This document shows positions 1 through 64,000 of a stretch of DNA of 64,000 nucleotides, piece after piece (position 1 is the stretch's first letter; every line of letters starts with the position of its first letter). Source of the DNA: Mustelus asterias (taxonomy: Eukaryota); NCBI RefSeq assembly GCF_964213995.1, contig NW_027590121.1, positions 62,001 through 126,000 on the forward strand. The letters are read 5' to 3'. Both the position numbers and the translations under genes were made by a program. Below the pieces are notes generated by a model. That model saw nothing but the letters and a program-made list of their open reading frames with translations, had not been told where the DNA came from and searched no databases.

Positions 1-101
1 GTGAATGGCCTCTCCCCAGTGTGGCTGCGCCGATGAGCTTCCAGCAGAGATGGGGCTCTGTATCCCTTCCCACAGTCCCCACATTTCCATGGTTTCTCCA
101 T
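1..101 (-). CDS. C2H2 zinc-finger gene, N-terminal part (runs off the left edge)
   Basis: Minus strand from ATG at 101-99 reads [33 protein letters not shown], a C2H2 finger plus TGERP linker. Upstream 102-700 is an inverted paralogue of 3890-4475. Confidence 0.8.
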
Positions 102-1761
102 GGTGCAGGTGTCCTTGCCGTTCTCTTGGGTGGACAATCAGTTGAAGCCTCGTCCACACACAGAACACGAGTACAGTCTCTCCCCGCTGTGAATGGTGTG
201 ATATTTATTCAGGCTGTGTAACTGGTTAAAGCTCTTTAGTCCATGCACTGGAAGACTCTCACTTGAGTGTGGCAGCGTGTTGGTGCTTTTCCAGTCACAC
301 TGATGTTTGGAATCTTTTCAAATCAACAGACTGGACAATAATTTCTCCTTCTAGATTCAAAGGCCGATGATATTCAGCTCCCAAGGAATATGACTCTGTC
401 AGATCTAGACGTGACGTTTGAGATTTCGGCCTGTGATTCCTCTTTCAGTATCCTGTGAAACAAGTTTACAAAAGTCATCAGTGTCAGTACAGGATGGAAA
501 TTCAGAACAGACAATTCTAGTTTCTATGGAACATTCTTTCCTATTTCAGTCCCAAAACATTGTGAATCTCCATCCCACACACTCTCCCTCCATTCTCACT
601 CTGCTGTATCTAATATTCACCCTCCCAATTCTCCTGAAGGTGCTGATTGAGGCTGATTGACAGATCCATGCTCACTGCTTCCTGTCCTGGACACAGAGAC
701 CATAACAAATAGGAGCTGCAGTCGGCCATTTGGTCCATCGAGCCTTTTAAACTATTCAATGAGATAATTCGTTCATCTACCTCGGCATCATTCTCCCCAC
801 ACTAAACCCATATCCCTTGATATCCTCAATATCTAGAAACCAATCAATCTCTCTCTTGAAAATAGTTGATGACTGAGGCTTCACTGTCCTCAGGGGTTGA
901 GAATTCCAAATCTTTACCACATCCTTGGGTGAAGAAATCCCCCCACGTATTAGCTTCTGCTCCATCTTCTTGTCTGTTCCCCATAACCCTTGTCAGTCAA
1001 AGATCTGTCTAACTGGGATATATTCAATGATCCTCAGCCTCCACTGGTCCCTGTGGAAGAGAAATCCAAAAGACTAACAACCCTCTGAGGGAAGAGACGT
1101 CTGGAAATATATAACGTAGCTACAGTTCCATATTACAAGATATTCAGATCCCAAGGAATATGACTCTTTCTAGATGTGGCGGTTGAGATTTTTGCCTGTG
1201 ATTCCTCGTTCAAAATCCTGTGAAATGAGTTTGCAAAAGTCATCACAGTCAGTATAGGATAGAAATTCAGAACAGACAATTCTAGTTTCTCTGGAACATT
1301 CTTTCCTATTTCATTCCCAAAAAGTTGTAAATCTCCATCCATATCTATGGATTCTATTTACAAATGAAAGTGGATGAGCACTTGAAGGAAATAAACTTGC
1401 AGGAGAATGGGGATATCGAGTGGGAATGGGACTGGAATGTTATACAGAGAGTCAGCCTGGACTCGAGTTACCAAATGGATTCCTTCTGTGCTGTAATGAC
1501 TTTATGACTGGAAGTGTATAACATCGCTGCAGCATTATATTACAATGCATGAAATAATAATAAATGTATTTTATTACAGAAGCATAAAGAATGTATCTAA
1601 TCTGAGTACCATATAACACTAGACATATCTCTGTCCTATATTAATTTACTGTACGCCTGAATGTCAGCCATCTCCTGGGGAAAGCTGCCCTTTAATGTGA
1701 ACATGAGGAAAAAGACCATCCTTTTCGACAGACAAATAAATGTGTCAAGCTGAGGGAGCAA

Positions 1762-2245
1762 AGGATGTTTACCAGGCTGATTCAGGGAATCGCGGGACTG
1801 ATGTATGAGGAGAGACTGACGAGGTTAGGATTGTTTTCGTTGGAGTTCAAATGAATGAGGGGGGAATCTCAAAGAGACTGATAAAATTCTAACAGGTCGA
1901 GACAGGATAGATGCAGGGAGGATGTTCCCGATGGAGTCCAGAACCGGGGGTCACAGTCTGAGGATTCAGGGCAGACCATTTAGGACGGAGGTGAGTAGAC
2001 ATTTCTTCACCCAAAGAGTGGTGAGCCTGTCGAATTTATTACCACAGGAAGTAGTTGGTGCCAAAACATTGAATGTATTCAAGAGGTGGCTGGATATAGC
2101 ACTTGGGGCGAATGGGATCACAGGTTACGGGGAAAAAGCAGGATTAGGCTATTGAGTTGGGTGATCAGCCATGATTGTAATGAATGGCGGAGCAGGCTCG
2201 AAGGGCCAAATGGCCTCCTCCTGCTCCTATCTTCTATGTTTCTAT
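1762..2245 (+). mobile_element. CR1-type LINE 3' fragment
   Basis: ORF 1922-2155 (GHSLRIQGRPFRTEVSRHFFTQRVV) matches the C-terminus of ORF2 at 53733-56609. A CR1-like 3' tail follows. Confidence 0.85.
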
Positions 2246-2469
2246 ATCAATGTCTTTAAGAGAGAGAGAGACCTGGGCCAACCTTCCCAGAGTCTGCAAC
2301 CTCCCTGGATTCACTTCCTTTCCCTTCAGTTGCTGCAAGTCCCCAATTTCCCGCAGAATGAGAAGAGAAACTCACAGATGTTGGCCTCCTTTAGGTCAAA
2401 CTCACAGATGTGAACGACAGGAGAAAGTTTGACTCTCTCTGAATCTCCATCTTCAATCACACAAGGCCC

Positions 2470-2835
2470 GCGCTCTCAATGGCTGGAGGACCAGAGTCCT
2501 TCCGGTCCTCCAAATCTTCCTATTGGCCAGAGCTGGTAAGGGGCCGTGAATCAAAGGTGCGCATGTGCGAGTTTGGGGGGAATGCGCATGTGCGGGTGTG
2601 GGGCGGGGCCCGGGACAAAGTCGGCGCACTGACCATTGTCTGTCCGGCTCTTCCAGCCTTTCCCATTGGACAACAGCTCAGCGCGGCTGGAGGACAAAGT
2701 CCCGCCCACCCCCACGTGGGGCTCCGCCCCTCATTGTCTGTCAACGGGGTTTGACCAATGGAAACTCCGGAGGACCAGAGGTTCTCTGGTCCTCCAGCCA
2801 ATCAGAGCTCCCCATTGCCTGAATGCGGAAGTGGA
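2470..2835. promoter_or_regulatory. Bidirectional CpG-rich promoter between divergent ZNF genes
   Basis: Several CCAAT/ATTGG boxes, GC boxes (GGGGCGGGG), two NRF1-like TGCGCATGTGCG motifs and an E-box CACGTG, bracketed by an inverted repeat (2477-2510 / 2770-2803). Confidence 0.65.
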
Positions 2836-2837
2836 CA

Positions 2838-2918
2838 ATAAGACCATAAGACATAGGAACGGAAGTAAGGCCATTCGGCCCATCGAGTCCACTCCACCAT
2901 TCAATCATGGTTGATTTC
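2838..2918 (-). mobile_element. Very short 5'-truncated young CR1 copy (3' tail only)
   Basis: Reverse complement of 56608-56688 with one mismatch by eye. Confidence 0.85.
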
Positions 2919-3029
2919 GAGCTTGTTCAGCTGCTCATTCCTGCCCAGCGAAGCTGCTGCCGCTCTCTCTCTCTGAATGAAGATTGAGCTTCAGACACAG
3001 ACTCAAGGAAGTGAAAAGAATCAGCCAAT

Positions 3030-3140
3030 GCCTACGACCATACTAGTCTGAAAACGCCTGATCTCGGAAGCTAAGCAGACTCAGGCCTGGTTAGTAGTTG
3101 AATGGAAGACCTCCTGGGAATACCAGGTGTAGTAGACTTT
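3030..3140 (+). pseudogene. 5S rRNA-derived sequence with 10-nt internal deletion
   Basis: GCCTACGACCATAC...GATCTCGGAAGCTAAGCAG...GCCTGGTTAGTA...CCTGGGAATACCAGGTG...CTTT follows vertebrate 5S. One of the two GATCTC repeats is collapsed. Confidence 0.9.
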
Positions 3141-3471
3141 AGGGTGGCATGGTGGCACAGTGGTTAGCACTGCTGCCTCACAACGTCAGGGACTCGGGTT
3201 CGATTCCTGGTTTGGGTCACTGTCTGTGTGGAGTTTGCATGTTCTCCCCATGTCTGCGTGGGTTTCCTCCGGGTACTCCGGTTTCCTCCCACAGTCCAAA
3301 AGATGTGTGGGTCAGGTGGATTGGCCATGTTAAATTGACCCTTTGTGCCAGGGGGACAAGTTAGGTGAAATGCACAGGGGTACGGGGATAGGGCCTGGGT
3401 GGGATTGTGGTTGGTGCAGACTCGATGGGCCGAATGGCCTCCTTCTACACTATAGGATTGTATGATTCTAT
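3141..3471 (+). mobile_element. HE1-type tRNA-derived SINE
   Basis: A box TGGCACAGTGG, B box GGTTCGATTCC, core TGTCTGTGTGGAGTTTGCA, and CR1-shared tail CTCGATGGGCCGAATGGCCTCC...ATGATTCTATG. Confidence 0.85.
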
Positions 3472-4474
3472 GAAGTGAATCCAGAGAGGGTGCAGACTCT
3501 GGAAAGGTTGGCCCAGCTCTCTCTCTCTCCCTCTCTTAAAGACATTGACATTCTTTGCTCCCTCAGCTTGACACATTGATTTGTCTGGTTAAGAGGATGT
3601 TCTCTTTCCTAATGTTCAGAATTAAAGGGCTGCTTTCCCCAGGAGATGGCTGACATTTAAGGGGACAGTAAGTTAATATAGGACAGAGATATATCTCGTG
3701 ATTTTTTTTGTCACAGATTCGATAAATTATTTATGGTTCTGCAATGAAGTAATTTATTCTTATTTATATTCTTGTAATATTGTACTGTACCTATGTTATA
3801 TACTTCCAGTTATAGAGTCATTCCAGCAAAGGGGTCCTTTCAGCCACACAAGTCCGTCCTGACTCTTGGTAAAAGTCTCTTAGTTCTGGAAGCAGTGAGC
3901 ATGGATCTGTCAATCAGCCTCAATCAGCACCTTCAGGGGAATTGGGAGGGTGAATATTAGATACAGCAGAGTGAGAATGGAGGGAGAGTGTGTGGGATGG
4001 AGATTCACAGCTTTTGGGGAATGAGAGAGGAAAGAATGTTCCATAGAAACTAGAATTGTCTGTTCTGAATTTCTATCTTGTACTGACAGTGGTGAATTTT
4101 GTAAACTCCTTTTACAGGATATCCGAAGGTGAAGATTTGCAGGCAGAAATGTCAAACCAAATGTCACACTAAGATCTCACAAATTCACTCTATTTATCGG
4201 AACCTGAATATCATCAGTCTTTCAATTTAGAAGGAGAAATTTTTGTCTGTTCTGTCTTTTTCAGGAGATCTTAAATATCAGTGTGCCTGGAAAAGCACTG
4301 AAACACACACACACCTGAGTGAGCGTGTTCCAGTGCACGGACTGTGGAAAGAGCTTTAACACAGTTGAACAAACATTGCACCATTCACATCAGGGAGAGA
4401 AATTAATTGTGTTCTGTGTGTGGACGAGCCTCAGTAGATCGTGAAACCAGCAGAGTCACAAGGACACCCGCACC

Positions 4475-5286
4475 ATGGAGAAACGGTGGAAATGTGGGAC
4501 TGTGAGAAGGGATTCAATTACCCATCAAAGCTGGAAACGCATCGACGCAGAAACACTGGGGAGAGGCCATTCACCTGCTCTCAGTGTGGGAAGGGATTTA
4601 GCCAATTCTCCCTTCTGCTTACACACCAGCGAGTTCACACCGGGGAGAGGCCGTTCGCCTGTTCTGAGTGTGGGAAGGGATTTAGTGATTTATCCACACT
4701 GCTGAGACATCAGCGAATTCACAATGGGGAGAGTCCATTCACCTGCTCTGACTGTGGGAAGGGATTCATTCAATCATCCCGTCTGCTGGCACACCAGCGA
4801 GTTCACACTGGGGAGAAGCCATTCACCTGCCCTGTTTGTGGAAAAATTTTCAGTAATTCATCCACGCTACTGACGCACCAGCGAGTTCACACTGGAGACA
4901 GACCGTTCAATTGCTCTGACTGTGGAAAGGGATTCATTCAGTCATCCCACTTGCTGACACACCAGCGGGTCCACACAGGGGAAAAGCCATTCACCTGCTC
5001 TGAGTGTGGGAGAGGATTCAGTGATTCATCAAACCTGCTGACACACCAGCAAGTTCACACTGAGAAGAAACCATTCAACTGCTGTGTGTGTGGAACGGGA
5101 TTCAAACATTCAGCAACCGTGATGAAACACCAGCGAGTTCACACCAGGGAGAGGCCGTTCACCTGCTCCATGTGTGGGAAGGGATTCACATTGTTATGCA
5201 ACTTGCAGAGACATGTGATGGGTTTGATGCTGGTGAGAAAGGGGGGAGGGTCAGGTAGAACAAAGAGAAAGTCAGGGATTGGTTAG
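4475..5286 (+). CDS. C2H2 zinc-finger gene (7 intact + 2 damaged fingers), frameshifted just after the family-typical ATG; possible pseudogene
   Basis: ORF 4441-5286 has tandem CxxC-x12-HxxxH fingers with TGE(R/K)PF linkers. ATG 4475 (MEKRWKCG) is one base out of frame relative to the paralogue at 1-101. The last finger is cut off by repeat sequence near 5215. Confidence 0.85.
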
Positions 5287-5999
5287 AGGGCGGGTGGAGA
5301 TTAAATGACAAAAATGTCCCGGAACCCAAGGCAAAGGGAGAGGTAATGGTTGTAATAAAGAAACAATAAGAAGTTTTAACAACAGCAGGTTAAAGTCCAA
5401 GAGGAACCTGGTGTTGTTAAAACTCTTACTGTGTTTACCCCAGTCCAACGCCAACATCTCCACATCGTAAAGAAACAAAGCATTGGCCCAGAGTAAGTGT
5501 GAATGGTAGAATAAAGGACAGCTCTGTCTGGAAGCAAAAAAACATGAAAACAAGATGCAAACTGACACTCAGCAAATAAAAAACAAATCCAAATGGAGGA
5601 GAGAGTTCAGGGTGTGAAGTTGTTGAACTCAACGTTGAGTCCAGAAGGCTGTAAAGTGCCTCATCGGAAGATGAGGGGCTGTTTGTCCAGCTTGTGTTGG
5701 GCTTCTCCGGAACATTGCAGCAGGCCGAGGACAGAAATGTGAGCGTGAGAGCAAGGTGGTGAATTCTAATGGCAAGCGGAAGGTCAGGGTCATGCTTGTG
5801 GACTGAGCGGAGGTGTTCCACAAAGAGGGCAAGGAACAGGCTACAGATGAATTAAAGAGAACCCATTTGTGTCCAGAACATTGTGAACATCCTTTTACTC
5901 TGGTTGTCTTTGATCCTTACAAATGCTGCTAGAACTGCTGAGATTTTCCAGCATTTTCTCTCTTGGTTTCAGATTCCAGCATCCGCAGTAATTTGCTTT

Positions 6000-6660
6000 T
6001 ATAAGGCTGCAGATACCTCCTCCCAAGTAACATGCGTGTGCCCAAGACATCATCACTTGTTTCCCTTATTTCTTTAGCACCCATGGTGCTCTCCGCAGTA
6101 AACACAGAGGAGAAGTATTCATTAAAAATCTCACCCATCTCCTGTGGCTCCACACACAGATGGCCATACTGATTTTTAAGGGGATCTATTCTCTCTCTAG
6201 CCACCCTTTTACTCTTAATATAGCTATAGAACCTCTTGGAATTTTCTTTAATCTTACCTGCCAGATCCATATCAGACCCTCTTTTTGTCCTCCTGATTTC
6301 CCTCCTCAGTATTTTCTTACACTTTTTATAGTCAGAGTGATTCACTTGTCCCCGATTTCCTAAACCCAATGTATGCTTCCTTCTTTTACCTGACCAGAGC
6401 CTCAATGTCCCTTGTCTGCCAGAGATCCCTAAATTTACCATTATTTCCCTTCACCTTAACAGGAATATACTGCCCCTGGACTCTTGATATCACACTTTTA
6501 AAACCTTCCATTTGCCAGTCATTCCTTTCCCTTCAAACAAACTCACCGAATCGACATCTGCTCGATCCTGCCTAATGCCCACAAAAGTGGCCCTGCTCCA
6601 GTTTAGGGCCTTGACCTGTGGACCTGTCCTATTTTTTTCCAGAACTATTTTGAAACTATT
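6000..6660 (-). mobile_element. CR1 LINE ORF2 internal fragment
   Basis: ORF 5929-6441 (KIKENSKRFYSYIKSKR...EIFNEYFSSVFT) is homologous to ORF2 of 53733-56609. Confidence 0.85.
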
Positions 6661-6934
6661 GGTGCTCCCAATAGTGCTCCCTGACTGACACTTCAGTCAC
6701 TTGCTCCACCTCGTTTCTTAACTGTCTAATAGAAAGTGAGTCCAGGAATTGATGATGAAAAATAAGGGGCTGGGAGATGAATTGAACAAGTATTTTGCCT
6801 CGGTGTTCACAATAGAGGATACAGTTAAAACTCAGAAACAGCTGGAAATCAGAAAACAGAAGTGTGGGATGAACTCTGAAAAAGCACAATTCCCAGGGAA
6901 GTGGTCCTCAGCAAACTGTTGGAGCTGTGGGCTG

Positions 6935-7092
6935 ATGAGTCCTCGGGTCCTGCTGGGCTGGTGAGTCCTCGGGTCCTGCTGGCCTTCATTCTCGGGTCCT
7001 GCTGGGCTTCATTCTCGGGTCCTGCTGGGCTTCATTCTCGGGTCCTGCTGGGCTTCATTCTCGGGTCCTGCTGGGCTTCATTCTCGGGTCTT
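6935..7092 (+). repeat. 23-bp minisatellite (CTCGGGTCCTGCTGGGCTTCATT), about 6.5 copies, inside a CR1 fragment (6720-7095)
   Basis: Units start at 6942, 6968, 6991, 7014, 7037, 7060 and 7083. Confidence 0.9.
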
Positions 7093-7129
7093 AACAGAGG
7101 GAGATCGTTGATGTTGTTCAATTTTCTTA

Positions 7130-7370
7130 ACCGTCCGTCGCCATTACCCTCACTGCGCATGCTTCAGGTCCCGCCCCTCATTCACCCCGATTGGTTGGAG
7201 GACCAGCCGCTCCCGCTCGGTCATCCAGCCCCGCCCCCTCTTCCTATTGGCCCGGAGCTGCCGTCAATCAGTCCCGGGGCATTGTGATGTGGAGCATGCG
7301 CAGTGTCATTGCTGTCCTTGGCGCTTGTTTGTCCCGGAGAAGCGGAGTCAGCGTTCGGCGGTGGCTGGGA
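7130..7370. promoter_or_regulatory. Second CpG-rich promoter-like segment
   Basis: ACTGCGCATGC / GCATGCGCAGT (NRF1-like), CCGCCC boxes and ATTGG boxes. It resembles the 2470-2835 promoter (GGAGGACCAG, CCTATTGGCC). No linked CDS identified. Confidence 0.5.
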
Positions 7371-8839
7371 GGATTTGGAAACACTTTGTGGATCCGCAAA
7401 CCCTTCAGAATCATTGTCAGCTCCCTGGTTTGCAGCTGCGGGGCTTCTCCCTCCCTCCCTCCCGGGAACAGGCCCAGGTTAACGGCCCCATCCTGGCTCA
7501 GCCACTGGAGGATGGTTCACATCAGAGGATGGGGGAGGGGGACAATAAATAAGAGGTTACACTTTGGCCTCAAATCAATGAGGACTCTGATCTCTGGGAA
7601 GGGACCAGGAGAGAAAATAATTAATTGATTTTATTTTCACTCTGTACAAAAGAGAACTGAACTCAGCCAGAATCGAGGGTGGGAGAAAAGATTTGTGAAG
7701 ATATTTCACACTGGGTTTGCCAGGCTGACCAACTCTCTCAGAGAAAATGAAAGGACATCCTTCATGAGTCTGTCGGAGCAGGTGAGCAGTATTGTGTGCG
7801 GTGCTGCTGGAACTGCGTGGGTGGGCAGGGGCTGGTTGGCAGCCAGAACAGTTGGAAGAGGGTGCTGCACACATCCATCTTATGGGTGAAACAGCACCCA
7901 TACACCATGCAGCCGAGCACAGTGGACTCAAACACGGGACAATCCATTGAAATATGAGATGGTTAGTCAATGTGGGAGTTGGTGGCAGGACAGGGAGGAG
8001 GGAAAGTGTTCAGGATGAGGATTTACTGCTTTACAGGAACAAGTGAGGAAACGATGTTCCACAGAACATAGTTTCAAATTCCAGCATCCGCAGTAATTTG
8101 CTTTGATTCCAAATAAACTTATTGGACTTTAACCTGGTGTTCTGAGACTTCTTACTGTGCAAACTCCACAGAGACATTCACCCACCGCTGGAATCGAACC
8201 CAGACTCAGTGAGGCAGCAGTGCGAACCACTGTGCCACAGTGAAGGTAATTTCGGGTGATAACAATGGACTGGATGTTGCTCAGAATGTGGAGCACTGCA
8301 GCAAAGTACAGAGAGACAGAGACAGAGCAGCAGACTGGACTGAGAAATGGAGTCTGCAGACTGGAACTGGCAGCATGAGGAGAGGTTATTTAGTCTAACA
8401 CCCACAACAATCTACAACCCACCCCCATTACCGAGACAGTGAGACAGAGATTACAAACACTCACCAACACAGCTCCACTGAAACGTCCCAGGAAAAAGAG
8501 GGAATCTGTGGCAGTTTCTGTCCTGAAATAGCCCCAGGACTGTCACTCAACCCCCCAACCCGGCCCAGTTCACAGCTCAGCCTCTCAGCTTGCAGCTTCC
8601 TGCACCTTGAGCCAACCCTGCCCAGGTGTCGGAGGGATGTGGAACCACAGAGTGGGGGAAGGGGTGACCACCTGCGGTGCCCCAAATAGTTTCTCCTTCC
8701 CCTCCCCCTTGGCTCTCTAAGGTCTGAATGTGGATGTGTTGATGGACATTGCAGAGCCTCACTGAGCTTTTCCTGGGTCACCCCTCCCCCTGGGTTCAGT
8801 GTGTTCAGTTCGCTGCTTCTTTCCCTGCTGAACTTTCAG

Positions 8840-9012
8840 TTAATCAAAAACAGAAAGTGCTGGAAAACCTCAGCAGGTCTGATCGCATCTGTGATCATCC
8901 AGACTGGAAGCAGTAACTCCATTCTCTCTCCACAGATGCTGTCAGACCTGCTGAGATTTTCCAGCATTTTCTGTTTGTTTCAGATTCCAGCATCCGCAGT
9001 ATTTTGCTTTTA
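8840..9012. repeat. Palindromic dispersed repeat (Penelope-associated/MITE-like)
   Basis: Arms AAACAGAAAGTGCTGGAAAACCTCAGCAGGTCTG / CAGACCTGCTGAGATTTTCCAGCATTTTCTGTTT. Related copies near 5920, 18320, 26990, 35225 and 51840. Confidence 0.75.
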
Positions 9013-9504
9013 TCTTCATTTAAACAAGCATTCTTTCATGGCCTTTACCCCCATTGCTCCTTTCCAGAGCTTCCCACCTTCTGCTATTGTCCCTGACTCC
9101 CACATTAACTCTGTCATTCCTTCCCTTTATCCCGCTCACATCCCGCTCGAAACTCAGGCTCAGAGTTTTAGCGCCATCTCCCCCTCCCCCAGCTCCCACA
9201 TCCCAACACCCGGAATCTCTAACCCAGCGGTTCCAGTTTGTCTGGTTTGAGTTCAGATTTGCCGCAGCACCGACAGGATTTCACTTCAAACCAGCCGGGA
9301 CTGACTGCTCACAAATCCCAAAATGTTTCTCCAGCAGCCCGGACTTGTTAATGTTGTTTAAAGTCAGCGCCCAAATGCAGTTACTCTCCTCAGTTTAAAA
9401 AACTTCTCCGTTTAATCCAAAGTATTATTCGCACCAGACATAAACACAAAATTGTGAACGTTACCCTCCCGCGCCCCCCCCCCTCCGAACTCCCCCCCCC
9501 CCCC

Positions 9505-10110
9505 CTGCTCTGAAAGCTTCCCCAACAAGTGGAATGTAGCTTAAGAGCGAGGGAGCTTTGTCCCGATTCTCACGGTATAGCTGCAATGAGTAGAAAGTAG
9601 CAGTGGTGGAATAGCTGAAATTGATGATCACAGAGTCGCCTTCGAACTGTGTCGCTGTAACCGGCCCCTGTGCGACCGAGTCTGCAGCAGGAATATCTGT
9701 CCTATTTCAGAAATAGAGAACATTTTGTTATCATTTTATTACAACCAAGATTATCAAATTAACAGAACATATTGTAGATGCAGGAAGCACACGGTTAAAA
9801 GTAAAAATACTCTGTGAGTAACATTAACAACAGATAATTGTTTAACTTGGGAGCTCCCAGTTAGGAGACCAGTAGCTGTGAAGAATGAGTAAAAGGTCCC
9901 AACATGTTCACAGAGCTGATGCTGGATCTGAACTCAGTGAGTTTGAGCTCAATAGTTTTAGGTAAGAGTTCAGAAGATGTGCAGTGACATCCGGTCCGGC
10001 AACCCGATTGGTCTATTCCTGACAGAGCGACAGGTGACAACCAATCGGTTCACTGCTCCTTTGTCCCATATTTCATCCAATCAACACGTAGTTTGTGACG
10101 TCAGTGAGCT
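9505..10110 (-). pseudogene. TCR alpha/delta-like V gene 'A1', 5' half: promoter, degenerate leader, intron, FR1-CDR2
   Basis: After acceptor ACAG (exon starts 9696) reads IPAADSVAQGPVTATQFEGDSVIINFSYSTTATFYSLQLYRENRDKAPSLLSYIPLVGEAFRA, colinear with 59781-59970. Promoter has TGACGTCA (10096-10103) and three CCAAT boxes. Confidence 0.8.
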
Positions 10111-10139
10111 GGGCAGATGAAAGACCAGCAGTGGCCACT

Positions 10140-10369
10140 TTGCCTTTGGAACATGTCCCTTCTACCCCTCTACCGCGGCTACGTTCGCGGCCAGGTGTCC
10201 CTGGAGAGGGAGCATGTGGTGTCCACGGGCGAGGTTGACGCTTTCCGCGCCCGCTGGGCACCGCAGGGGTTGGGGTGCATTATTGACCCTAATAATCACA
10301 TTTTAATTTGATGTTTTTTAAGTTTCCTTTGTGCTTTGATTTCTGTTCGGGCTGTTCCCCCTCCTTTTT
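10140..10369 (+). mobile_element. Non-LTR retrotransposon (Tx1/L1-like) 3' fragment
   Basis: ORF end LPLYRGYVRGQVSLEREHVVSTGEVDAFRARWAP followed by a T-rich 3' UTR. Family assignment is from recall only. Confidence 0.45.
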
Positions 10370-10516
10370 GGGGATTCGATTTTCTTCATCTTTAGACACT
10401 TGAAAAAATGAGGGGAATTTGACTATCCGTGAGCTGCGGCTGATTGACAGCGCGATGTATTTCTGCGGACTGAGATGTACAGTGACAGGAAGCTGAGGGA
10501 CCCTCGTACAAAAACA
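10370..10516 (+). pseudogene. TCR V gene 'A1', 3' half (FR3) with 23-RSS
   Basis: RFSSSLDT*KNEGNLTIRELRLIDSAMYFCGLR, then TACAGTG (10478-84), a 23-bp spacer and ACAAAAACA (10508-16). In-frame TGA and a mutated heptamer. Confidence 0.85.
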
Positions 10517-11634: not shown

Positions 11635-12677
11635 CGTTTTTGTACGAGGACTAAACTCGTTCCCATCTCCGCGAGACTCTGTGCACGGTAATAGACCGCG
11701 GTGTCAGACAGCCGCAGATCCACGATTGTCAATCGGTACAACTTGTCTGACTGTTGGACTCTATCAGAAAACCGGTTCTGAGCGAAATCTGCTTTGAATT
11801 CAGAACTGCCGCCAGTGTCCCTGCGGACTGCAAACTCGGGCTGCCTGCCTGGGTACTGACGGTACCAGAATAAATAATCGGTATTGTCGGTAAAGGTGCA
11901 GCTTAAAGTGACATATTTTTCCTCTGGCGGTGTGAGTGAGGAATCCCGCTGAGTAACAGAATCTCCATCGCTCTGATCTGGAACACATGGTTAAAAAAAC
12001 GGAAATAATCAACTGAACTGAACTGAAAGTGACAATTAGTGGTCAGTATTACATTGAATAAAATGGAGTTCAGACCTTTGAAAAAAAACTTGCCACAAAA
12101 TTGATCTCTGTCGGTATTACATCCGAAAGAGCGCAATTCGCCTGACTTCATCTCACTCAGAGTTTTCATCCATTTCTTTCTCCATCATCTCTATATTTGG
12201 CTTCCCTTGTGGTCATGATGTACAGATTATAAACACACGCTGTGTAGGGAGACATGTCCACAATGCCCTTTTGCATCCATTTGGACCATTACATTTATCA
12301 TATTCAATGATCCAGAAGTGAAAACAACTCTGCAGCACTAACCTATTAACCACCTTTCAATCACATTTGAAGACCTCTGTCAGGCTGTCCCTCCAGCGTC
12401 GCTTTGCGAGATCAAATAACCTCAGCCAGCACAACTATTTCTGATAGCTATTTCATGTCACTTGCGGTATCACCTTCGAAAAGATTTTTTCTCATTTACT
12501 CCTGTGCCTTTACATCTTTTCCTAACAATCCTCATGTGGTCGGAACACGTTTCAATACAAGTGTTAAATAGACTATTCACTTTTCAAATCCAATTCTCTG
12601 AAATTAATCTTAGAAGTTTTAAATTTCTCACCGACGCTGAAAGCTGCCCAGAGCACAGCGAGAACGGGGATCCACAT
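11635..12677 (-). pseudogene. TCR alpha/delta-like V gene 'B': leader exon 12677-12632, V exon 11977-11674, 23-RSS
   Basis: Leader MWIPVLAVLWAAFSV-G|GTGAG (phase 1). Open V exon QSDGDSVTQRDSSLTPPEEKYVTLSCTFTDNTDYLFWYRQYPGRQPEF...RFSDRVQQSDKLYRLTIVDLRLSDTAVYYRAQS (Cys104->Arg). RSS CGCGGAG-23-ACAAAAACG. Confidence 0.88.
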
Positions 12678-15777: not shown

Positions 15778-16005
15778 ACGGATTGTCCCGGATTTACAAT
15801 AACAGTCGTGTTGCTGGGTAAGTCTCTGTGGCAGTTATTCTACATCTCATTTGTTAAATACGGCAACAGATTTTGATCCGTTTTGCATTTCGTTTCAGGA
15901 ACGAGTGCCGAGGAGTCGGTGTCCGTGGGCTCATTTGAGTTAACGATGCTGAAAGAACAGCCTGTAATTTTCTGCCATACTTACTCCACTTCTGAGTCCA
16001 TCCTC
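15778..16005 (+). pseudogene. TCR V gene 'D', 5' fragment: leader (start ACG), 81-bp intron, FR1-CDR1
   Basis: CACC-ACG-G...(T)DCPGFTITVVLL-G|GTAAGT (15817/18). Acceptor TTTCAG (15898), then TSAEESVSVGSFELTMLKEQPVIFCHTYSTSES. No WYRQ or RSS follows. Confidence 0.65.
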
Positions 16006-17262
16006 AGCTCATGTTTTTTTGTTTATTACATAAATTGCGGCATGGGAAAATCAGCAATATTCCAGCCCCCACTGTCCAAACCCCCTGCCAGCAGAAAGCA
16101 CTGGATATTTTGCTCTGTGTGTTTTCTTAGAAATGGTGAAGAGTAAATATTCAATATTTTGATTGATACCCAGTTCCGTTCACATTCAACAATAACTTGA
16201 TTTCGGAAACATCGGAGCAGTGAGTTTTGATAATGTTTCTGCCCCGTGACAGTGACAGTGATTTTTCTAATCAGCTGACCATCGTCATTTTAGCCATTGT
16301 CTTCCTTCAGGTCCGCCACCCGAAAGACATGTTCCTCATTTTTTAAAAATCTCCGTTTAATTCCAGATTTGTCACATGCCAGCGAGCCCATTGTCCTGAA
16401 AACAATGTCTCTGAACCATTGGACCACCCGGGCTCCGCCATCACCAGCTCAGTGTTGCCTTTTCCATCATTCCTTGCGTCAGATAATCCATCCTCCCTTG
16501 TAGTCTGTGACGAACCATATCTTCTGCCATTTTTAAGAAGTGACCCCGATTTACAATCTGAAAATGCAGAGAAAACTCAGCAGACTAGTTGAGATTTAAC
16601 AAATATATGAATAATATAACTCTTCCCTTAGTCGGCAATGAAAAGGATTTGGAAATATTTCTGCCCAGTTTCCAGCCATGGGAGGCGGACGTGATAACTG
16701 CAGTGGAATGTTTGCTGTCATTGGTTGAACACATCACTGGTGTTAGATCCAGAAGGGGCCATTTTGCAGGATAAGTTTGTGGTGAAAGCGGTCTGGTGTG
16801 AAAATTAAAATAACAAAAAGGTCATGAAAAAAGCAATTGTAAAACACGCTGTAATCTGCTGCTCTGGCGGTTAGAGTTTGACACTTTCGCTGCTGTGTTG
16901 ATTGCAGGGCAGGAAATGAAGATTTATTGCTCTCCTCCAACCACGAAAACAGTTATTTCCCGGGAGAACACAGAAATCCCAGTCTCGCCTTGTATCCTAT
17001 TATTTCTGAAGTGAATACCCTGAACAAATTCAACAGCAAGTCATGGTGTCCTTTCTGGGAACCAGACAAAGTTAAGGACAATTTAAATGGTGCCAGCGCT
17101 TCACTGCAGTTCATTGCGTTTCTAACTGGAGATGATCGTTGTTTGTTACAGAGTTCAGGATCATCTGATTCGGTGAAGATTTCCTGCTGGCCCATCTCCA
17201 CGGATTCTGGAATATTTCAGTATCAATACAAGAAAAGGACATGATTGCTACGTCTGCCTCGT

Positions 17263-24344: not shown

Positions 24345-24541
24345 TGCTCCTCTCTCTGACGTCATGAATTGAAGAATGAAGACACTCGGAGCTGATTGGG
24401 TGAAATATAGGATAAAGGAGCTGTGAGCTGATTGGGTGTCTCCTGCTGGATAGGAATGAACCTCTCACCATTGGGGCCGGATATTACTCAACATTTTCTG
24501 AACTTTGAGCTAAAACAATTGAGCTTTAACTCATTGAGTTC
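24345..24541 (+). promoter_or_regulatory. Orphan copy of the family-A TCR V promoter
   Basis: Colinear with 59345-59540 and rc 9930-10110 (TGACGTCA at 24357, GCTGATTGG x2, GGCCGGATAT). It stops just before the leader exon. Confidence 0.75.
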
Positions 24542-59344: not shown

Positions 59345-60124
59345 CTCCTCCGTCTGACGTCATGGATTGGTGAGCGAAGGCACTCTGAGCTGATTGGATG
59401 AAATGGAGGGTAATGAATCTGTGAGCTGATTGGGTGTCTCCCGCTGGCTCTGTCAGAAACGAGCCAATCGCTTGAGGCCGGATATTTCTCAACATTTTCT
59501 GAACCCTGAACTAAATATGGAGCTTGAACTCACTGAGTTCAGATCCAGCATCATCTCTATGAAGACTTTGTGTGTTAGTCTTTACCAGTTCCTCACAGCT
59601 TCAACTCTTTTAACTGTTCCCAAGTTGCACATTCTGCCGCTTGCTCGCGATACTGACATAGAAATCTTTCCATTGAACTGTTTTTCCATCTATTTGTAAT
59701 ATATTCAATTACCTAAATCCCGTTGTTTCTGACAAAGTGATAAGAAAAATTAAGTTTCGTATTTCTATTCTTTTTTGCAGGTGTGAGTGCTGCAGGTTTT
59801 GTCTCCCAGGGTCCGGTTACAGCGATGAGGTTTGAAGGAGAATCGGTGTGTATTGATTTCAGCTATTCGACCACAGCGGCTGCATATTCTTTTCAGTTTT
59901 ACCACCAGGACCTGGATATAGTCCCCACATTCTTGATCTACATCCCCAGTTACGAAGATGTTGTCAGAGCAGAGGGCGTGGGGGCTCGATTTTCTGCATC
60001 TTTGAACACTTCGAAAAAGCAGGGAAATTTCACCACGTGAGCTGCAGCTGTCTGACAGCGCGGTTTATTACAGCGGACTGAGAGACACAGTGACCAGAAG
60101 CAGAGGAAGCCTCGTGCAGTGTGA
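59345..60124 (+). pseudogene. TCR V gene 'A2': promoter, leader (ATG 59559), V exon 59781-60085, RSS heptamer
   Basis: MKTLCVSLYQFLTASTLLT; TTTTGCAG|; VSAAGFVSQGPVTAMRFEGESVCIDFSYSTT...RFSASLNTSKKQGNFT/RELQLSDSAVYYSGLR (2-nt frameshift). CACAGTG (60086-92) and 23-bp spacer present, nonamer deleted. Confidence 0.85.
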
Positions 60125-63478: not shown

Positions 63479-64000
63479 AGTTTTTGTACAGGTTCAGCCC
63501 ATTTCTGTGTCTCTGTGGGTCTCAGTGCGCAGTAATACACCCCGGAGTCTGCCAGCTCTATCTTAGACACATTCAGCGGAATGGTGCTCTTCATAAAGTC
63601 AAACTCTGCAGAGAAACGGTCCCCTCGGAATCTTTCTGTGTTCCCGCTGTACCTACTTTTCTGATACAGAAACTCCATGGACCCGCTGGGATACTGACGA
63701 TACCAGAATAGAATACGTGAATTTTACCAGAAAGCCTAATGTCTGCAGTACAAATCTTGAGAAATACTTAGCTAGTCTGACAAACTCCGGTAAGATGTTA
63801 CTTGAGATTTGCTGGCATTGTATTAAAATCAGAAGGGAAGATTAGATAATTTTTAAATGTTGACACTTTCTCTTATTTTCTGGCTCATCGCTGGGTCGTT
63901 GCTGGTTGCAGCTGTAAAGTTACAGAACAACTGACCGTCACGTCCTTCACTCACTGTGACTGCAGCTGGTGTCTGTGTAACAGAGTCTCCTCCACAATAT
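63479..64000 (-). pseudogene. TCR alpha/delta-like V gene 'E' with 23-RSS, CDR1 interrupted by about 180 bp; leader beyond the right edge
   Basis: CGGDSVTQTPAAVTVSEGRDGQLFCNFTAATSND [63894-63715] ILFWYRQYPSGSMEFLY...RFSAEFDFMKSTIPLNVSKIELADSGVYYCALRP, then CACAGAG-23-ACAAAAACT. Confidence 0.88.

Follow-up and report, generated by a model that had tools for sequence, protein, structure and literature searches.

The window analysed here, a stretch of 64,000 nucleotides from Mustelus asterias, belongs to a shark TCR alpha/delta V field, in which the segment at 63993 is similar to nurse shark aV1. Two damaged V segments of a single family, designated A1 and A2, lie within it. The features delineated at these segments, together with two others that bear on the family, are as follows.

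9501..9696, minus strand: A1 V exon, 5′ two-thirds (FR1 to start of FR3), 99% identical to the uninverted copies L013 and L014
9501..10374, no strand assigned: inverted block of 874 bp with the A1 promoter, leader and 5′ exon part, from blastn to L013 and L014
9858..9905, minus strand: A1 leader exon, donor GG where copy L013 has GT (by eye)
10371..10477, plus strand: A1 V exon, 3′ part, with a TGA stop at 10401-03 and Cys104 at 10464-66
10478..10516, plus strand: A1 23-bp recombination signal, heptamer TACAGTG defective, nonamer near-consensus
15899..16045, plus strand: fragment D, a decayed V of another family, outside the A1/A2 family
24346..24541, plus strand: orphan copy of the A1/A2-family promoter, with no family exon detected in the following 3 kb
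59355..59610, plus strand: A2 promoter and leader exon, TGACGTCA at 59355, ATG at 59559
59781..60085, plus strand: A2 V exon, with Phe23, Phe41, a 2-nt deletion near 60036 and Ser104
60086..60124, plus strand: A2 recombination signal, heptamer intact, nonamer lost

Two other V segments were observed in the window, both on the minus strand. The one at 11677-11960 is a canonical V with Cys23 and Trp41 and with Arg at 104, and is likely a pseudogene; the one at 63500-64000 is aV1-like, with a CDR1 insertion and a near-consensus 23-bp signal.

In A1 and A2 alike, the leader exon, intron, V exon and 23-bp recombination signal are all present though damaged, and both fail the IMGT functional criteria of an open frame and intact splice sites and signal. 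The promoter element TGACGTCA of A1 is located at 10096, inside the 874-bp block (9501-10374) that, judged from the 99% identical uninverted copies L013 and L014, is inverted relative to the 3′ part of the exon. This inversion of the 5′ half of A1 relative to its 3′ half was overlooked in the original prediction. Its left boundary is a poly-C tract (window 9472-9504), and the DNA to the left of it (1-9500) was unmatched in the 20 kb and 10 kb upstream of the two uninverted copies, which suggests either a duplication breakpoint or an assembly join at this point. In three sequencing runs, their kind unrecorded, the uninverted joint 9501/10369 was present and the inverted-form joint absent, a result compatible with either a real inversion or a mis-assembly; the GT form of the leader donor at 9856 was seen in one sequencing run. 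The TGA stop is common to L013-L017. With its stop, dead heptamer and 874-bp inversion, A1 is a pseudogene.

The leader donor site of A2, compared by eye with L110 and L030, is seemingly part-deleted. Its frameshift and Ser104 are common to all 12 copies L001-L012. Frameshift, Ser104 and the lost nonamer make A2 a pseudogene as well. Elsewhere in the genome, the family promoter, leader and exon start were found directly before an unrelated canonical V exon (L110-L112, L117), a possible deletion chimera.

The substitutions that define the family were read directly from both copies. A1, read from 9696 down on the minus strand, carries the motif VIINFSYST...LQLYRE, with TTC (Phe23) at 9619-9617 and CTA (Leu41) at 9580-9578; A2 carries VCIDFSYST...FQFYHQ, with TTC (Phe23) at 59858-60 and TTT (Phe41) at 59897-99. 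Both motifs agree with those originally predicted, as does the state of position 104, which is TGC in A1 (10464-66) and AGC, hence Ser104, in A2 (60072-74). Numbering was assigned from spacing relative to canonical V exons of the same genome and from the nurse shark authors' alignment, in which, by a by-eye count, the CTA codon of aV10.1 stands in the TGG column of aV1.1 (PMC5931798). The Phe of A1 and A2 is residue 22 counted from the mature start, the place occupied by Cys in the canonical V exons L075, L077 and L078. Canonical shark TCR alpha/delta V genes (nurse shark aV1 and aV4; L075-L078) keep Cys23, Trp41 and Cys104, whereas the A1/A2 family does not keep this set; the two have in common the TGACGTCA promoter element, a leader plus V exon, the 23-bp recombination signal and the locus itself.

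Trp was present at position 41 in 203 of 210 V-like domains drawn from 150 listed profile-search matches, which argues that loss of both residues is not common noise. Among the matches listed, only two of the 210 domains were without both Cys23 and Trp41 but with Cys104, and both belong to the A1/A2 family; several rows that seemed to have no Cys23, P0022 and P0127 among them, were rejected as alignment slips. Two other departures at position 23 were noted. P0058, P0124 and P0145, the first two from Callorhinchus milii, are a chondrichthyan V group in which Ser23 occurs together with Trp41 and with an additional Cys immediately ahead of FR2; they may be one more disulfide variant. P0051 and P0052 (Scyliorhinus canicula), L083 and L085, some V segments of the NAR-TCR supporting V type, have Trp or Phe at 23, with relatives in other species that keep Cys; L083 and L085 also carry a stop. 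Fragment D, for which the original prediction had noted His at the same site, belongs to a different decayed family: it gave no blastn match to 88 loci and an E of 0.65 to A1, and in 14 of 14 examined relatives a Cys stands one place before the "His", followed by a variable residue (H, Q, Y or S).

The family was searched for in the Mustelus asterias genome by protein, DNA and pattern, and the best 40-150 candidates of each search were scored. This gave 121 scored loci, with 75 rows above the family threshold (some places entered twice), and delineated a TCR-alpha V family of about 15 diverged lineages. Neither Cys23 nor Trp41 was found in any of the 75 family loci scored, and both are absent in all family members read, which thus depart from the IMGT set of Cys23, Trp41 and Cys104. 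No intact member occurred among these 75 rows, which comprise the best candidates per search; L023-L025 have an open frame, but with Trp104 and no CAC heptamer, and a promoter-led search returned additional decayed fragments only. Four lineages (L023, L050, L061, L062), all copies of which are dead, form a sub-branch in which a Cys stands at the second place past 23 (F/L-N-C-S) and could offer Cys104 another partner.

Fifteen representatives were picked, each a distinct lineage, and thirteen could be read at the key positions. The codons at 23 were TTC in 11, CTC in 1 and TAG in 1, with Cys23 in 0/13; those at 41 were CTG in 6, TTG in 3, TTT in 2 (that of L023 read by hand), CTA in 1 and CGG in 1, with Trp41 in 0/13. 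Cys104 was kept in 11/13. The original prediction had argued against decay from the 2-3 changes that separate the codons at 41 from TGG. This argument is weak, as CTG or TTG occupies position 41 in 9 of the 13 lineages, and because a single change separates TTG from TGG and TTC from TGC, codon distance alone is insufficient against an inherited lesion. One could picture a single dead ancestor (TGC to TTC, TGG to TTG) that was copied many times: one mutation suffices per change, and this genome has dead copies only. The lesions themselves speak against such an ancestor, since most are lineage-specific and none that is disabling is common to all lineages. So does the pattern of divergence, which was 0.36 at third codon positions vs. 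0.23 and 0.25 at first and second (permutation p=5e-5; 14 lineages, L081 omitted).

The dN/dS check that the original prediction had called for gave a concordant picture of purifying selection across lineages. Median dN/dS was 0.57 over 103 pairs with at least 50 codons, and 100 of the 103 fell below 1; neutral simulations had means of 0.73-0.89 and a lowest value of 0.59 over 300 runs. The margin is small (0.57 vs. minima of 0.59-0.63 in CpG- and transition-rich simulations), and the pairs are non-independent. The mostly different lesions, the third-position excess and the dN/dS value together suggest that the lineages likely diverged as working genes in which Cys23 and Trp41 were already lost.

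Expressed relatives are found in the nurse shark. We examined TRA V10 cDNAs from supplementary file 3 of PMC5931798 (rows 404-448, 45 in all; 44 examined, row 407 left out), reading the V region by eye to the start of the junction; these rows are absent from the trees described below. All 42 of the aV10.1 rows examined (of 43) carry TAC/Tyr23, CTA/Leu41 and TGC/Cys104 (PMC5931798). The two aV10.2 rows have TTT/Phe23 and TTC/Phe41, one with Cys104 and the other seemingly losing it at the junction (PMC5931798). Nurse shark V10 thus combines an aromatic residue at 23, Leu or Phe at 41 and a retained Cys104, as in the A1/A2 family, the difference being Tyr23 in aV10.1 vs. Phe23 in A1 and A2. By eye, V10 and the A1/A2 family also have the same CDR lengths and family motifs in common, and aV10.1 is about 54% identical in amino acids to the A1 lineage (52/96, ungapped, by-eye count). 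Whereas the Mustelus asterias copies are dead, TRA V10 is intact and expressed, rearranged and spliced to C-alpha (PMC5931798). The TAC codon of aV10.1 differs from that expected of copies of one dead TTC ancestor, and the presence of the trait in expressed clones makes inherited pseudogene lesions hardly credible as its source.

Open V exons were also detected in a second shark genus. Profile searches matched two predicted proteins of the bamboo shark Chiloscyllium punctatum, GCC45228.1 (F23/L41/C104) and GCC20152.1 (F23/V41/C104). Word-indexed protein searches gave no further family members, and no bamboo shark V sequences were found in the 12 of 19 supplements of PMC10322711 that were searched. 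Intact and expressed relatives of A1 and A2 do not, then, all possess Cys23 and Trp41: the nurse shark aV10 clones and the bamboo shark exons are without both. The central inference of the original prediction, a rearranging V lineage without the disulfide/Trp core, is supported by these clones and exons and stands.

Could the family rearrange and be transcribed, yet yield an unstable protein that contributes little, V10 being a passenger destined for loss? In this genome each of the 75 scored family loci is broken, and a V10-specific primer, listed in PMC5931798, may have enriched V10 clones; for this reason 45 of 539 clones is not an unbiased measure of V10 usage. The clones themselves point the other way. 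The 45 V10 clones have 27 unique CDR3-J junctions (Table 1 of PMC5931798), and the 41 clones that were analysed, V10 accounting for 13, all kept the reading frame and had no stop (PMC5931798). Their sources were thymus and gut, and three heavily mutated gut clones (rows 404-406) retain all three V10 residues (PMC5931798). These in-frame, diverse and clonally grouped transcripts, the open exons of a second genus, and the purifying signal among lineages in all of which both residues were already gone render a passenger status unlikely.

Taken together, the nurse shark clones, the open bamboo shark exons and the purifying selection argue that the substitutions are a family trait and not decay. 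We put at roughly 0.8 the probability that A1 and A2 derive, as dead copies, from an elasmobranch family of TCR-alpha V genes that is likely orthologous to nurse shark TRA V10, and that those members of it which are rearranged and transcribed have neither Cys23 nor Trp41 and have a predicted V fold without the B-F disulfide. Whether the family is already described in shark TCR alpha studies, as the original prediction had asked, has a divided answer. The sequences are public, and in the main text of PMC5931798 the words "tryptophan" and "disulfide" do not occur, "cysteine" occurs in a primer table only, and the oddity of V10 goes unremarked. A literature search with several shark TCR papers outside its coverage likewise returned no remark on the double loss in the shark V10 family.

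In line with the structure prediction originally proposed, an alignment-guided AlphaFold model of the bamboo shark protein gave a V-type (V-set) sandwich, with pLDDT 92-96 over residues 11-100 and positions 23, 41 and 104 on strands B, C and F. Model confidence leans on an alignment dominated by canonical V domains, and single-sequence pLDDT was 42. V-type domains naturally without the canonical disulfide, such as the antibody ABPC48 VH and CD2 domain 1, show that the V fold can be stable in this state; these are a single somatic variant or a non-rearranging receptor, whereas the shark family is germline-encoded and rearranging.

The original prediction had left Cys104 as free or re-partnered. 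The first of these is upheld as the most likely state, a buried free Cys104, because no partner Cys exists in the mature V region of aV10.1 or of the bamboo shark members. A non-canonical disulfide of Cys104 with a Cys in CDR3/J or, in one sub-branch, with Cys25 would draw on the F/L-N-C-S motif of four lineages, on two extra Cys in nurse shark aV10.2 (by eye) and on the retention of Cys104 in 11 of 13 lineages. We consider it decidedly improbable, given that the mature V regions of aV10.1 and the two bamboo shark proteins contain no other Cys, and that the junction starts of V10 clones (the starts only) are variable, with no fixed Cys. With Cys104 as a buried free thiol, the aromatic residue at 23 (Phe/Tyr) would, we think somewhat probably, fill the core space left by the disulfide and the smaller Leu41. 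Such a chain would be expected to pair with TCR-beta like any ordinary alpha chain.

Loss of Cys23 has a precedent among teleost TCR-alpha V genes. Salmonid TRAV1, a subgroup that is expressed, has Tyr in place of Cys23 and relatives in several teleost families; that report concerns teleost species only and gives no other structural peculiarity (PMC8559430). We infer that the teleost Tyr23 domains found in our searches are this TRAV1 (PMC8559430). Salmonid TRAV1 and the shark family are alike in an aromatic residue at 23 (Tyr; Phe/Tyr) and in having no B-F disulfide, whereas the teleost Tyr23 domains found here keep Trp41 where the shark family has Leu, Phe or Val. As Tyr23 coexists with Trp41 in these domains, the aromatic swap is not forced, and the core packing proposed above is not the sole solution.

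Phylogenetic analysis placed the family and the bamboo shark proteins in one clade (SH-aLRT 98 in a 42-row tree; 84 in a 185-row quick tree, one mis-framed row, G_winB, being disregarded). In these trees the teleost Tyr23 domains sit within canonical teleost V, and the shark family is a clade of its own. Forced union of the shark family with teleost Tyr23 V was rejected at p-AU 0.0153 (12 rows vs. 30, quick tree, 108 columns), the groups for this test having been picked after a first tree had been inspected; orthology of the two is rejected on this basis (p-AU 0.015). Placement of the nearest canonical neighbours of the family is weak (V of coelacanth, reedfish, paddlefish and turtle in one tree, with a partly different set in the other). 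In the same weakly supported region of the tree lies P0013 of Callorhinchus milii, residues 55-109 of which are a V fragment with Cys23 and Leu41, a state that could mark loss of Trp41 before Cys23. The family would descend from a canonical TRAV ancestor, with both residues lost once and independently of the teleost Tyr23 lineage. In Mustelus asterias it would have diversified under selection and then decayed, its dead copies being multiplied by segmental duplication.

In the Mustelus asterias window the trait is carried by pseudogenes only, and part of the picture is already known: the nurse shark sequences became public in 2018, and teleosts are on record as having a TRAV subgroup without Cys23 (PMC8559430). 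Beyond that subgroup, the shark family is also without Trp41 and is likely of independent origin. The domain likely functions without the usual lock, given that its counterpart in the nurse shark undergoes rearrangement and transcription. A further step, for which we see the balance as even, is that an old, unremarked shark TCR-alpha V lineage works at the cell surface without the disulfide and core Trp, a second, more extreme and independent loss relative to that of teleosts, kept in some sharks and extinguished here after ~15 lineages.

Whether a V gene counts as functional is judged on Cys23, Trp41 and Cys104 (IMGT criteria, PMC8559430). Standard annotation would wrongly class as non-functional a family that is without two of these three residues but is found in transcripts that are in-frame and clonally expanded. 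Such a family would also offer a natural example of a V domain free of the disulfide, relevant to folding and to domains that have to work inside cells, and the shark and teleost cases suggest that the disulfide was shed at least twice in TCR-alpha V domains.
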